Shown here piece after piece: positions 14,685-19,015 of a stretch of DNA of 64,000 bases. The DNA is from Candidatus Poribacteria bacterium (GTDB lineage: Bacteria; Poribacteria; WGA-4E; WGA-3G), in assembly GCA_965198235.1 (NCBI GenBank), contig OZ240248.1:384001-448000 (forward strand), given 5' to 3'. The translations under genes were made by a program, and so were the position numbers. The notes under the pieces are model-generated. The model saw nothing but the letters and a program-made list of their open reading frames with translations, searched no databases and was not told the DNA's origin. Position 1 is the stretch's first letter. The number at the start of each line of letters is the position of its first letter.

Positions 14685-15440
14685 ATGAAAATAAGATCAA
14701 ATAGAGTTAAACAGAAGTTAGCGGATGGAGACCTTGCGTACGTCATTTCAGGGTTGACGAGTGCTGATGATATAGATACCTTCGGTCCGAATGGATACGA
14801 CGGTGTGTGGTTGGAAGGTGAACACGGACGAGTGGATGCAGCACAACTCGGGGATCTGACGCGTGCATGCGACCTCTGGGGGATGACCTCTATCACACGT
14901 GTCAATCGCAACGATCAAGGACTTATCTACCGCACATTGGATTGTGGTGCAATGGGCATCTGTGTTCCGCACGTCAACACGAAAGCGGAGGCACAAAACG
15001 TTGTGGATGGTGCGAAGTTCGCGCCGATCGGACACCGCGGGATGTTCACCAGTCGCCAGGGCTATGGTGTGGACAACTATTTTGATGTCGCTAACTCACA
15101 GACACTCGTGGTTGTCCTGATTGAAGACATTGTCGCCGTTAACAACCTAGACGATATTCTCACTGTCGATCATATCGACGTATTTTTCGTTGCACCGTCA
15201 GATTTAGCAACTTCTATGGGCCATATCGGGAATCTTACCCACCCAGATGTCCAGAGGACGATTGATGCAGCACTCGCGCGCATCCAAGAGGCGGGACGGG
15301 TTGCTGGGACTTTGGCAACCGATGCGACTGTTGAAAAATACGTAAAGGCAGGGGTGCGGTTTCTGATGACAGGTATTGGCGGATGGATTACATCCGGCGC
15401 AGCAGCATTTAAAGAACGGGCAGAGGATGCGAAATCTTAA
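14685..15440 (+). CDS. HpcH/HpaI aldolase family protein
   Basis: WLEGEHG, LDCGAMGI.VPHV, KFAPIGHRG, VLIED, APSDL. Confidence 0.9.
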   Translation: MKIRSNRVKQKLADGDLAYVISGLTSADDIDTFGPNGYDGVWLEGEHGRVDAAQLGDLTRACDLWGMTSITRVNRNDQGLIYRTLDCGAMGICVPHVNTKAEAQNVVDGAKFAPIGHRGMFTSRQGYGVDNYFDVANSQTLVVVLIEDIVAVNNLDDILTVDHIDVFFVAPSDLATSMGHIGNLTHPDVQRTIDAALARIQEAGRVAGTLATDATVEKYVKAGVRFLMTGIGGWITSGAAAFKERAEDAKS

Positions 15441-15517
15441 CAGATTTAACCTACCAAGTGTTCTATCTTCTTATCGGCGCGGTTTCTAACCGCGCATTTT
15501 CATTGAATCCAAGGCAA

Positions 15518-16852
15518 CTACGCCAAAAAAGTGATCCCTCCTGATGCCTCTCTGTCCTGCCAGACTGAACCCGTCGGATAGATGTGCTTCTCGACAAACT
15601 CCGGATACATCTCCAGTCCCCAACCGGGGACTGTTGGCGTAACATAGGCACCATTGCGTACCTGAATTGGGTGCAGGAAAACGTCCTCTTGTAAGAAGTT
15701 GAGGTATTCAACGACCTGTGTTTCCGAATGCGCGGCGACGCAAATTTGATCCCAAATGGCGTAATGTTGAATCATGTTACACAACCCGATGCCACCACCG
15801 TGCGGGCAGACGGGGATAGCGTATTTTGCGGCCATCAAGATGACTCCGAGCACATCGTTGACCCCTCCGAGCCGCGTCGCGTCAATCTGGCAGTACTGGA
15901 TCGCTTCATTCGTGATTAACTGTTTGAAGATGACAGGCGACGGTACCTGTTCGCCTGTAGCGACTCCAATACCGTGTTTCTCTAAGGCACGTGCGATTTT
16001 CACGAAGCCGAGCACATCGTCGCGCGCTGTCGGTTCCTCAATCCATGTCGGTTTGAACTGTGCTAACTCTTCCATATAGGCGATTGCTTCATCGACACCC
16101 CATATCTGATTTGCATCCAGCATCAGAAGTGCCTCTGTGCCGATTGCCTCCCGAATGAAGGCGAGTCGTTTCTTGTCAAAGTCCAGATCCTGTCCAACCT
16201 TCATTTTGAAGCAGTCAAGCCCGGCTGCTTTCACCTGATTCACTGTCTCAATAATCTGTGCATCTGTCAGACCGAGCCATCCTGCGGTGGAATAAGCCTT
16301 GGGTCCCTGTTGGAGGAGCGTCTGCTCACGGGCTGCGCGACTGCCCCAATGTGTGTTGAGGATCTCCTCTGCTTCATCAGGTGTCAGTGCATCGCGCAGG
16401 TACCGCCAATCAATACATTGCGCAATCTTCTCTGGTGGTAGGTCAACGAGAAGTTTCCAGAGCGGTTTATCGACCAGTTTTGCCCAAGTATCCCACATCG
16501 CGTTGACAATGCTCCCGATCGCCATCCGGTTAACGCCGTCAGCAAGCCAGCGTAACTGGTGATGGTCGACAAGAAGCCTGTGGAATGCACCGGGGTCGTC
16601 AACGAAAGTGGCCATCTCCACCCCAACAACGAGTTGTGCCAGGTCTTTAACGCCGTAGGCAATCCAGTCGTTTCCGGCACCCGCGGTGAACGCCACTGAT
16701 ATACCTTGATGTCCTGTGCTTGTTTCAAGTGTCGTTAGGACTGCAGAATAATTCGGTTTTTTATGAAAGGGATCGGAACCGAGTAGTGTATCCGATGTGG
16801 GGACGCGTAAATCAACAACATCAACTTTTACGATTTTTCCTAAGTTATTCAT
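15518..16852 (-). CDS. L-fuconate dehydratase-like enolase-superfamily protein
   Basis: DLRVPTS..LGSD, AYST.GWLG, FKMKVG, DANQ.W, WIEEP, ATGE, VCPHGGG.GLC. Confidence 0.88.
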   Translation of the reverse strand: MNNLGKIVKVDVVDLRVPTSDTLLGSDPFHKKPNYSAVLTTLETSTGHQGISVAFTAGAGNDWIAYGVKDLAQLVVGVEMATFVDDPGAFHRLLVDHHQLRWLADGVNRMAIGSIVNAMWDTWAKLVDKPLWKLLVDLPPEKIAQCIDWRYLRDALTPDEAEEILNTHWGSRAAREQTLLQQGPKAYSTAGWLGLTDAQIIETVNQVKAAGLDCFKMKVGQDLDFDKKRLAFIREAIGTEALLMLDANQIWGVDEAIAYMEELAQFKPTWIEEPTARDDVLGFVKIARALEKHGIGVATGEQVPSPVIFKQLITNEAIQYCQIDATRLGGVNDVLGVILMAAKYAIPVCPHGGGIGLCNMIQHYAIWDQICVAAHSETQVVEYLNFLQEDVFLHPIQVRNGAYVTPTVPGWGLEMYPEFVEKHIYPTGSVWQDREASGGITFLA

Positions 16853-17237
16853 CAAAATTTTCGGTGTAGAAACTCCGTCTTTATAAAGTGGGGAGGAAAC
16901 ACCTCTCTCCTTTTTCTTGACAGAAAACGCCAAAATCGTTAGAATGCTCTGCGTCGTGCAGAAGGTTGTGAATTATGCGTACTGGACGCTATTGCTGAGT
17001 GGGTTTACGTAAAACGACAACACGATGACGCTAAACAACCCAGACGAGCTTTTTGAGTGTAATGGATGCGAGGCAGTAAAACACCCGATCCGAAAAAACG
17101 CACTCTGAAAAAATAGTGAGTTGCCTTCGGGCAAGCGGGCTGCTTAGTATCCCGTTGTGGAGTAGATGTAAGGCCTCACTTTGAGGCAAACTACGATGAA
17201 GCACAAGCCCCACCCTTTAGGGTGTGGGTGCTATGAC
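16853..17237 (+). mobile_element. non-autonomous IS200/IS605-family element (tnpB remnant plus omega-RNA-like right end)
   Basis: Left: TTCAT|CAAAA, GAAA at the foot of hairpin 16873-16895. Right: CAAG at the foot of hairpin 17208-17228, ending in TGAC. Decayed TnpB Zn-ribbon tail (FECNGC..KH..NA) at ~17020-17110. Confidence 0.8.
16917..16945 (+). promoter_or_regulatory. sigma70 promoter inside the mini-IS
   Basis: TTGACA-17 bp-TAGAAT. Confidence 0.65.
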
Positions 17238-17257
17238 GTTTGCTTGACTCCTTTCCT
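17120..17257 (+). ncRNA. putative TnpB omega/reRNA scaffold plus flanking guide
   Basis: GTGGAGTAGATGTAAG-GCCTCA/TGAGGC-CTACGATGAAGCAC nested stems before the right-end hairpin, typical of IS605/IS1341 3' ends; guide would be 17238-17257. Confidence 0.6.
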
Positions 17258-17489
17258 GACTGAGTATATAATAACCCAAGTTGCCATCTAACAAACTGTA
17301 AATGTTTGCGTACTATTTTTTTTGACCACACGCGGAAGTTTAAGGGATACAGATGTCGCCCCGCTGGGGCTTTAACGCGTTATAGCTCGAGTTTAAAAGG
17401 TGTACCTTCAAGATTTATGAAAAGGCATCCAAAAAAGCAATGAATATAGCATCTTTTATTCCAAGGTAGCAACTTGGATTATATAATAG

Positions 17490-18050
17490 ATGAATATGAA
17501 AATCTATACTAAATTCGGCGATTCTGGAGAGACTGCGCTTTACGGCGGAACAAGGTTAGGGAAAGATGAACCACGCATTGAGGCGATCGGCACTGTTGAC
17601 GAACTGAACGCTTATATCGGTTATGCGCAGACGCAGGTTGACGATGCTGATCTTTCCGAGCTCATGGCGCGGGTTCAGAATCACCTCTTTGATGTCGGTG
17701 CGGATTTGGCAACGCCAGCGACACATACGAAAGCTGCCGAATTCCGCATACCGGCAGATTTCACCATAGAGATGGAGACCGCAATAGATACACTATCTGC
17801 GGAGCTTCCACCACTGACAAACTTTATTCTGCCCGGTGGCTGCACCGCTGGCGCTATTTTGCATATCGCGCGCGTGGTGTGCCGTCGAAGTGAACGGTGT
17901 GTCGTGCGTCTCGCACGCGAAGCGGAGGTCAATCCTGAGATAATCCGAAGTTTGAACAGGCTTTCGGACCTCCTGTTTGTTCTCGCTCGCACGGTAAACT
18001 TCCGTGCGCAGGCTCCAGAACCGATTTGGGAGTCGCAAGCAAACTCTTAA
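17490..18050 (+). CDS. pduO: ATP:cob(I)alamin adenosyltransferase (PduO type)
   Basis: KIYTKFGDSGET, GTVDELN, FILPGG, R.V.RRSER, LNRLSD.LF.LAR. Confidence 0.92.
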   Translation: MNMKIYTKFGDSGETALYGGTRLGKDEPRIEAIGTVDELNAYIGYAQTQVDDADLSELMARVQNHLFDVGADLATPATHTKAAEFRIPADFTIEMETAIDTLSAELPPLTNFILPGGCTAGAILHIARVVCRRSERCVVRLAREAEVNPEIIRSLNRLSDLLFVLARTVNFRAQAPEPIWESQANS

Positions 18051-18056
18051 AAAGTA

Positions 18057-18150
18057 TAGGACTTACACAATTTTTCTATGAGCACCTCCGTATGACACGC
18101 CGCTGGCGAGGTTTGAAACCTCGCCAGCAATGGATGTTGCGTAAGTCCTA
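18057..18150. mobile_element. TA-flanked MITE carrying a REP-like palindrome
   Basis: TAGGACTTACACAA...TTGCGTAAGTCCTA inverted ends; internal GCTGGCGAGGTTTGAAACCTCGCCAGC; inverted relative at 33217-33342. Confidence 0.7.
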
Positions 18151-18188
18151 ATTTTATTTATTTTTATTTTAACGGAGGAGATGAAATA

Positions 18189-18956
18189 ATGAATTTGAGA
18201 TTGACAAATTTATTCTTAATAATTCTCATCGCGTTTGTTGCACTGGCAGGTTGTGATAAAGCGCAAAGGGTGGTAATGGATGGCATGCCATTGGCAGATG
18301 CCACTATGGATGAGACTATGACTGACATGGAAGCGGTTCCAGTGAGTTTAGTCTGGCTAGTCGACTACCCAGAGGGTGAGAAGGAGGTTTATCTCGAGTG
18401 GATTGCGTCCATTGCGGCAACGCTACAAGCCCCGGAAGAGGTCAATCGGATACGATCTTACGACAATCGTGAGGACGTGAGTCCACACCGGTTTGTTGAG
18501 TTTGAATTTGACAGTTTTCTTGATGCGGCGGCATATATGAATCGTCCGGAGATAGCCGGCGTTTTTGCAAACCTTCCCAACCATGCAACTCAAGTAAGCG
18601 CACACACGTTTATTGAGCGCTCTGACTACGCGAAAACCGAGGTAGACGATTGGCCAATTAAGGGTGTTATTTTTATTGACTATCCCCTCGGGGGAAAAGC
18701 AGCATATCTGGAATGGGTTGCTTCTATTTCTTCTGCATTGGTCGGGCCCCCTCAGGTGAAAGCGGTATCCTCTTACGACAACTACTATGGTGAATCCCCA
18801 CATCGGCTTGTTGTGTTAGAGTTTGCGAGTCAAGAGGATGTCGATGCCTTTGAGCAGTTAGAAGATATAATGGCTATCGAAGCTGAACTTGATGTCCGGG
18901 CAGAGAACTGGGAGCTGCATACACTCGAGTTGCACTCGGATTACATCAACGAATAA
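18189..18956 (+). CDS. lipoprotein with two tandem alpha+beta (EthD/DUF1330-like) domains
   Basis: Lipobox LAGC; internal duplication DYP.G.K..YLEW.ASI...SYDN...SPHR....EF.S. Confidence 0.8.
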   Translation: MNLRLTNLFLIILIAFVALAGCDKAQRVVMDGMPLADATMDETMTDMEAVPVSLVWLVDYPEGEKEVYLEWIASIAATLQAPEEVNRIRSYDNREDVSPHRFVEFEFDSFLDAAAYMNRPEIAGVFANLPNHATQVSAHTFIERSDYAKTEVDDWPIKGVIFIDYPLGGKAAYLEWVASISSALVGPPQVKAVSSYDNYYGESPHRLVVLEFASQEDVDAFEQLEDIMAIEAELDVRAENWELHTLELHSDYINE

Positions 18957-18982
18957 CACCTTGCGGTTCATTTTTTTCTTGC

Positions 18983-19015
18983 AGGCGCGCTTAGAAAGCG
19001 CGCCTCTCTTTTTTT
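18983..19015 (+). terminator. terminator between convergent genes
   Basis: AGGCGCGCT-TAGAA-AGCGCGCCT followed by a T-run. Confidence 0.6.

Follow-up and report, generated by a model that had tools for sequence, protein, structure and literature searches.

What becomes of a gene when a transposon settles between its ribosome-binding site (RBS) and its start codon? The question is raised by a 64,000-nucleotide stretch of DNA from a Candidatus Poribacteria bacterium (GenBank assembly GCA_965198235.1, contig OZ240248.1, positions 384,001 to 448,000), here called the window, in whose numbering positions are given unless a contig is named. In it, a derivative of the IS200/IS605 transposons lies between an L-fuconate-dehydratase-like gene and the native Shine-Dalgarno (SD) sequence of that gene. 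An earlier note on this DNA had proposed that the gene is off while the element is in place, and that scarless excision may make the arrangement a reversible on/off switch. The answer we prefer, giving it an even chance, is that the element is fixed and probably immobile, that its left end replaces the RBS of the dehydratase gene, and that it has kept a promoter and a guide-RNA-like module. Four features frame the question.

15518..16852, minus strand: L-fuconate-dehydratase-like gene (enolase superfamily), 444 amino acids, intact as judged from domains, orthologues and the ratio of nonsynonymous to synonymous substitution rates (dN/dS)
16848..16852, plus strand: TTCAT, insertion target and predicted target-adjacent motif (TAM) for a guide RNA; (T)TCAT precedes the left ends of the family
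16853..17237, plus strand: protein-less IS200/IS605 derivative of the palindrome-associated transposable element (PATE) type, 385 bp, a single copy of its kind
17238..17256, minus strand: displaced native leader, made of the SD GGAAAGGAG (17256->17248) and a 10-nt spacer (17247->17238); contiguous with the start codon in 29/29 relatives

The dehydratase gene starts at an ATG (16852->16850) that is held in the complement of TTCAT. Its product carries MR_MLE_N and MR_MLE_C domains in a domain search, aligns over residues 5-434 with the solved L-fuconate dehydratases 1yey and 2hxt (E ~1e-107), and matches human ENOSF1 (4a35) with an E value of 8e-119; no NCBIfam equivalog model is reached at its own cut-off. 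On these matches the gene is an intact, L-fuconate-dehydratase-like member of the enolase superfamily, with a predicted substrate. Orthologues at 88-93% amino acid identity are found in 32 of 36 genomes of the same genus, and in 0 of 24 genomes from three other families of the order.

To compare leaders, we used the 29 of the 32 orthologues for which a locus was available, leaving out the remaining three. At all 29 loci an AAGGAG-type motif, a spacer of 8-11 nt and the start codon are contiguous; the element is absent from all 29, and the target duplication is likewise absent. In the window, the corresponding SD and spacer sit directly past the right end of the element, and joining the two flanks gives back the ancestral order of SD, spacer and start seen in the relatives. 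The structural part of the earlier note thus holds: a miniature insertion sequence does separate the gene from its RBS, the TTCAT target does contain the minus-strand ATG, and the joined flanks do read as a normal SD and start. Since the element is missing and the leader contiguous in every relative compared, the insertion is placed by this comparison within the lineage of this species.

The element itself is defined by its two ends.

16853..16916, plus strand: left end (LE); nhmmer E = 1.1e-13; outer stem (16863-16867 with 16899-16903) kept, inner hairpin decayed
17208..17237, plus strand: right-end (RE) subterminal hairpin with a bulged 3' arm and terminal TGCTATGAC; the stem co-varies among copies

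Both boundaries are set by comparison with family copies elsewhere in the genome, since flanking sequences part at exactly these points. The LE opens with CAAAAT... immediately after (T)TCAT, and the RE closes with ...GGGTGCTATGAC. In about 20 right ends of the family, a co-varying bulged hairpin is followed by TGCTATGAC, TGCCTTGAC or TGCTATCAC, and the flanks diverge right after it. In this copy the RE hairpin spans 17208-17228 and leaves a 9-nt tail, with stem co-variation seen across more than 20 copies. The LE hairpin lies where it is expected for IS200/IS605 (~20 nt from the cleavage site), with clear homology and a decayed stem. For its inner hairpin, the expected binding site of a transposase, DNA folding gives -2.2 kcal/mol; intact copies reach about -8, and the ten best-kept of the other 24 range from -8.8 to -6.0 kcal/mol.

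IsrB- and TnpB-bearing copies elsewhere in the genome have this left end too. Over its final ~95 nt the element shares 80-83% identity with the stretches from tnpB stop to right end at C1:2532087 and C1:2163399, and element positions 200-385 (186 nt) are 81-85% identical to two other mini-elements. No close sister copy exists in the genome, the best match being 85% identical over half the length. The longest internal open reading frames (ORFs) have 53 and 60 amino acids, and a tblastn search with six TnpB proteins found no tnpB coding remnant (best E 0.87). The ends shared with family copies and the lack of a protein of its own agree with what the note had called an IS200/IS605 mini-derivative; from its sequence, we class it as a PATE-type derivative with a guide-RNA-like module, which is a known kind of element.

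PATEs are IS200/IS605 derivatives that encode no protein and bear guide RNAs (Meers et al., 2023, preprint 10.1101/2023.03.14.532601; PMC7290912), and a PATE-like element has been described in Halanaerobium (PMC7290912). TTCAT has been reported as a TAM, as for the IscB of ISGst5 (Meers et al., preprint 10.1101/2023.03.14.532601). As PATEs are portrayed in these sources, the element resembles them in consisting of LE and RE without an ORF, in sharing its ends with TnpB- or IsrB-bearing copies, in its guide-RNA-like right end and in its TTCAT TAM. It differs in lying between an SD and an ATG, in its decayed LE hairpin, in having no sister above 85% identity, and in offering an SD, as we read it, to a host gene.

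How unusual is such a position? A profile of the left end has 54 matches in the genome, of which 25 have CAT directly before them. Seventeen of these 25 adjoin an ATG that opens an ORF of 244-824 codons running away from the element, so that besides the dehydratase gene there are 16 other long ORFs with the same junction. As background, 8.9% of ATGA sites (3,742/41,895) and 10.4% of ATGAA sites (1,525/14,702) open at least 240 codons. If all intragenic insertions were purged, a crude ORF model gives an expected start-codon share of 11-16%, and under that expectation the binomial probability of at least 17 in 25 is 3e-11 to 7e-9. In the relatives, 30 left-end matches fall in 29 loci; 19 are flanked by ATG, and 13 of these 19 open at least 215 codons, some of them being mutually orthologous. 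Judging from these junctions, the CAT-targeting clade habitually ends directly before start codons.

The flanked genes include pheT, uppS, trpB, a MATE transporter, a DegT-type aminotransferase and a dapA-like gene. A regular expression located confident right ends for only 5 of the 17 gene-start elements; at these 5 loci an SD-like motif is found just past the right end, indicating that the native RBS has been cut off as it has at the dehydratase gene. Of these genes, uppS and pheT are essential. The gene uppS has one match per genome, and the element is absent from 29/29 related loci. A leader of AGGAT plus 7 nt is common to 28/29 of these relatives, and here it lies past the right end of a 235-bp mini-element. 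A single pheT match is present in each of 41/41 genomes, and in the flanked copy residues 1-797 align to profile positions 1-798. Three species have a left-end relic before its ATG, and their stems differ by a compensatory change; the empty site could not be reconstructed for pheT, as the upstream region is rearranged between species. Before a gene for a 677-amino-acid protein, a left end stands at the same site in four species and the ORF is still open. In the three relatives compared, the alignment covers the flank on the side of the gene and part of the element, and in one of them it extends to the far flank; this marks the left end as an old shared insertion.

Do genes behind such a junction still work? 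The dehydratase gene is intact, and its dN/dS is ~0.06 (0.035-0.068 against eight relatives, compared with 0.028-0.087 among the relatives themselves, at a dS of ~0.5). Alleles were sought in contigs of four runs (X1, X2, X5 and X8), sponge metagenomes and metatranscriptomes from three studies that hold the locus; rare variants drop out of such contigs. One X8 contig, which is linked to the insertion and represents a second strain from a second study, has three coding differences, and all three are synonymous third-position changes. These values fit continued constraint on the dehydratase.

The element also has features that could serve a switch.

16917..16945, plus strand: promoter-like TTGACA-17-TAGAAT, directed toward the right end, 11/12 matches
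16952..17253, plus strand: guide-RNA-like (omega-RNA-like) module, its last ~95 nt homologous to the region downstream of tnpB

TTGAC-like motifs also follow other left ends of the family. The guide-equivalent of the module is predicted to be the flank from 17238 onward. The fold z-score of the module is only -1.3, and the part upstream of its last ~95 nt is without a tnpB counterpart. An Rfam scan of 15000-19000 at E <= 1 returned 0 matches; no described guide-RNA, intron or leader family fits. RNA-library contigs run over the element at 16565-17234 (X1, 0 differences) and 16960-17223 (X5), although these are strand-less contigs in which DNA carry-over is possible. X5 has no contig over 16173-16948, which does not indicate silence, and the mean depths of X1 RNA contigs (290 vs 5-11) are contig means that give no ranking of expression.

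Such features bear on the proposal that the gene is silenced or hypomorphic, reversibly or otherwise. In its switch form, TnpA acting in trans would excise the element and restore the gene, and TnpB with the guide RNA of the element would cut the restored site. The native SD is indeed 385 nt away; excision of IS200/IS605 elements is scarless, and homing of TnpB on the donor joint is established (Meers et al., preprint 10.1101/2023.03.14.532601). The genome has 35 TnpB-domain matches and, among 6 matches to Y1 transposases, 3 IS605-type TnpA genes. Promoter and module are kept and lie under RNA-library contigs, and TTCAT with the right flank has the TAM-plus-target geometry that a guide RNA requires, so this much of the suggested link to TnpB stands.

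The rest of the switch finds little footing. The LE hairpin is decayed, and the three TnpA-bearing copies differ in both left end and target (TTAT); an nhmmer search of the genome found no TnpA-bearing copy with the left-end type of the dehydratase element. Together with the missing close sister copy, this suggests that the element has lost the ability to excise. Contigs from each of the three studies span the filled junction (X1 and X2 with 0 differences, X8 with 5 in 696 nt), so the filled allele is common to strains of each. No exact empty allele occurs in the contigs of the four runs, which can miss rare excision. One contig alone skips the element; since it has 11 other letters and a different second codon, we assign it to the empty site of a relative rather than to an excision product. 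A scan of metagenome contigs with the dehydratase protein gave 94% identity at best, and hence no same-species allele. Of the filled and exact empty alleles that a switch would show side by side in one population, only the filled one came out, in what is a weak test. The further claim of the earlier note, that the gene is off with the element present, fits poorly with the same junction at 16 other long ORFs, including the single-copy genes pheT and uppS, with an unrelaxed dN/dS and with strain differences that are synonymous only. We regard silencing, with or without the switch, as unlikely.

If the dehydratase is still made, how does translation begin? Three features of the left end come into play.

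16907..16912, minus strand: AAGGAG, candidate substitute SD from the left end, 3 nt before the 5' foot of the outer stem
16852..16902, minus strand: 16-codon, GTG-started small ORF within the left end; its TGA overlaps the ATG of the gene by one base
16890..16918, plus strand: terminator-like hairpin (16890-16910) plus T-run, on the top strand of the left end

Read in the sense of the gene, the left ends run (A)AGGAGG, 0-3 nt, an outer stem of 5-6 bp, an internal loop, an inner hairpin, the 3' arm, 9-10 nt and then ATG. The outer stem co-varies between copies (CGGTGT/ACACCG, CGGCGT/ACGCCG, CAGGCT/AGCCTG). The complement of GGAG (CTCC) is present in 18/25 CAT-flanked left ends, compared with 6/29 other LE-like matches and 7.7% of random 28-nt windows. 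The tail of the host 16S rRNA is canonical and GGAG has a sharp peak at -11, indicating that SDs are used in this genome.

We infer from this arrangement that the SD of the left end drives translation of the dehydratase. The clade inserts 3' of TTCAT and thereby, on the other strand, directly ahead of ATGA(A); the dehydratase is most likely still made. In gene sense, the left end would supply AAGGAG at the 5' foot of a long bipartite hairpin, with the ATG 10 nt past the 3' foot, and folding of the hairpin would bring SD and start codon together as a split RBS. The element also retains the internal promoter and the TnpB-type guide-RNA-like module, which reads out across the right end.

A split RBS of this design is known from genes 38 and 25 of phage T4, where a hairpin between SD and AUG brings the two together. 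The order of parts is the same here (SD, stable hairpin, short spacer, AUG), whereas our hairpin has two parts and ~45 nt, leaves a longer effective distance between SD and start, and has a predicted function. Stem-loops are also known from the left end of IS200, where they act as a terminator against incoming transcription and as a hairpin that occludes an RBS. The terminator-like top-strand hairpin and T-run of our element are similar, but the IS200 stem-loops regulate the internal transposase gene, whereas here the gene concerned is a host gene outside the element and on the other strand.

Several points weigh against translation from the left-end SD. The inner hairpin is decayed in this copy, and the minimum-free-energy fold of the RNA lacks the consensus structure. 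Even with the stem bridged, SD and ATG are effectively far apart, at 3 + 10 nt in this copy and 1 + 10 nt in the consensus. Transcription of the leader must cross 385 nt of element against two strong-looking plus-strand promoters, and a second insertion (described below) sits in the promoter region. Left ends are kin, so that counts across subfamilies overstate their independence. Whole-branch constraint cannot date the insertion, and the synonymous differences are a small number, three. Of the first ATGs of 2,966 long ORFs, only 44.7% have an SD-like 4-mer upstream, and SD-less initiation may be sufficient in this organism. Lastly, the conservation of CCTCCTTTT may have a different cause: the motif forms the 3' arm and T-run of the top-strand terminator-like hairpin, and the SD would then be a by-product.

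The last two points lead to a different account, in which the gene is expressed without the left-end SD. Initiation would be SD-independent, on the A/U-rich and unstructured 10 nt, or would follow termination-reinitiation from the small ORF, and AAGGAG would be the complement of a terminator. The terminator-like hairpin is in place at 16890-16910 on the plus strand, most first ATGs have no SD-like motif upstream, and essential genes tolerate the same junction. The small ORF has AAGGAG 4 nt before its GTG, with stop and start overlapping, so translational coupling specific to this copy is possible on sequence grounds. However, the small ORF is an accident of copy length, as the consensus is out of register and the uppS copy is without an equivalent, and an SD-to-GTG spacing of 4 nt is short. 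The complement of the SD is enriched in CAT-targeting left ends, while the corresponding windows of other types are mostly without CTCC, and SD use is clear in this genome. We find this account doubtful.

A start further upstream has also been suggested, at an in-frame TTG (16933) inside the element, which would add 27 N-terminal residues and rescue translation. The TTG is in frame and the frame is open from 16933, as claimed. Its role as a rescue start is where the suggestion fails: no SD-like motif precedes it, the extension consists of transposon-end sequence with no counterpart in the 29 orthologues, and no such start is found in other family copies. We consider this start highly improbable, and keep to the reading of a fixed element whose left end would supply the RBS of the dehydratase gene.

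Could the same hold for the whole clade? On a wider reading, the TTCAT/ATGA-targeting clade of these sponge symbionts would be a start-codon-docking transposon that lands, or is retained, just ahead of ATGA(A) starts, and whose left end has evolved into a portable RBS, with an SD at the foot of a hairpin. Essential genes would stay translated, and the elements would live in 5' leaders, transcribed by host promoters, including the flank-derived guide of IsrB-type copies. We put this forward tentatively, as somewhat less than probable.

Part of it is already in print. N|ATGA is the reported target of ISC/IS605B transposons (Kapitonov et al., 2016, PMC4810608), and our elements agree with those, as described there, in target (TCAT| being |ATGA on the other strand), in having IscB/IsrB-type genes opposite tnpB, and in the lack of a target duplication. 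The main text of that paper makes no link between ATGA and start codons and mentions no SD in a transposon end; 'start codon', 'initiation codon' and 'Shine' each have 0 occurrences in it. In the literature searched, supplements excluded, no paper connects IS200/IS605 ends with start codons or with the RBS of a host gene. PATEs, the TTCAT TAM and the N|ATGA target have thus been published, whereas start-codon docking with an SD-bearing end is in no paper searched.

The locus is therefore an ordinary kind of element in a telling position, and the idea of a switch is weak. If the left end does stand in for the RBS, this is a transposon design that neutralises its own likeliest damage, given a target complementary to a start codon. 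Such a design would also explain the high copy number of TnpB and IsrB elements in compact genomes, and would provide a natural portable split-RBS part. For annotation, a mobile element before an ATG should not automatically be taken for gene inactivation or a switch, and the dehydratase should count in the sugar-acid metabolism of the symbiont until shown otherwise.

Some further observations concern other left ends and start codons. A truncated left end at C1:755854 (plus strand) precedes a gene for a 293-amino-acid sulfatase-maturase-like protein, and its usual GAAGAT reads GAGGAT; the resulting GAGG, 6 nt from the start codon, is possibly a compensating SD. Several species carry, ~100 nt upstream of pheT, another kind of structured insert, which occupies ~95 nt between the pheS stop and the pheT ATG. 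This insert likewise begins with AAAGGAGG, and a long stem joins its two ends; it may be a second, unrelated example of the order SD, hairpin, ATG.

Other members of the transposon family can also be described. ORFs of 341-400 amino acids that are IsrB-like and have an RRXRR domain only lie on the strand opposite to tnpB at C1:4647853-4648955, 4954354-4955600 and 1584110-1585170. Each of them terminates within the left-end hairpin, whose loop contains the stop codon, ~35 nt before flanking sequence. The three Y1 matches that are not IS605-type TnpA genes look, from their surroundings, like transposases associated with repetitive extragenic palindromes (REP) rather than IS200. They lie at C1:3853757-3854101, 606918-607262 and 1898775-1899119, flanked by repeated ~25-nt palindromes of the GCACTCCAGCGGAGTGC type.

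Beyond the right end of the element, the intergenic region holds another promoter.

17244..17272, plus strand: promoter-like TTGACT-17-TATAAT of a divergent PduO-type adenosyltransferase gene, 11/12 matches; conserved in relatives; overlaps the displaced SD

The -35 box of this promoter is the complement of part of the dehydratase SD region. In the relatives, the promoter lies only ~8 nt before the ATG of the adenosyltransferase gene, in what appears to be a leaderless-type layout. In the window, a second insertion of ~206 bp occupies 17274-17479, with CCAAGTTGC and GCAACTTGG near its ends and a 9-bp duplication, TATATAATA, as direct repeats at 17265-17273 and 17480-17488. The relatives have one copy of the 9-mer TATATAATA, and only ~43 nt between the divergent start codons. 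The -10 box was duplicated by the insertion (17482-17496), so that the full adenosyltransferase promoter now points into it.

We considered this second insertion as a member of a repeat family and rejected that view, since it is single-copy in the genome and only an inner motif of 23-32 nt recurs. The motif (17346-17377, with a GCCCCGCTGGGGC palindrome) is found ~10 times in the genome. Contigs of all four runs contain a variant in which 20 other letters replace 17291-17465. Finally, in the 94%-identical metagenome relative (contig positions 1421-1460), another IS200/IS605 right end adjoins ATTCAT, the second TTCAT of the same intergenic region, which places the element there at the start codon of the adenosyltransferase gene instead.

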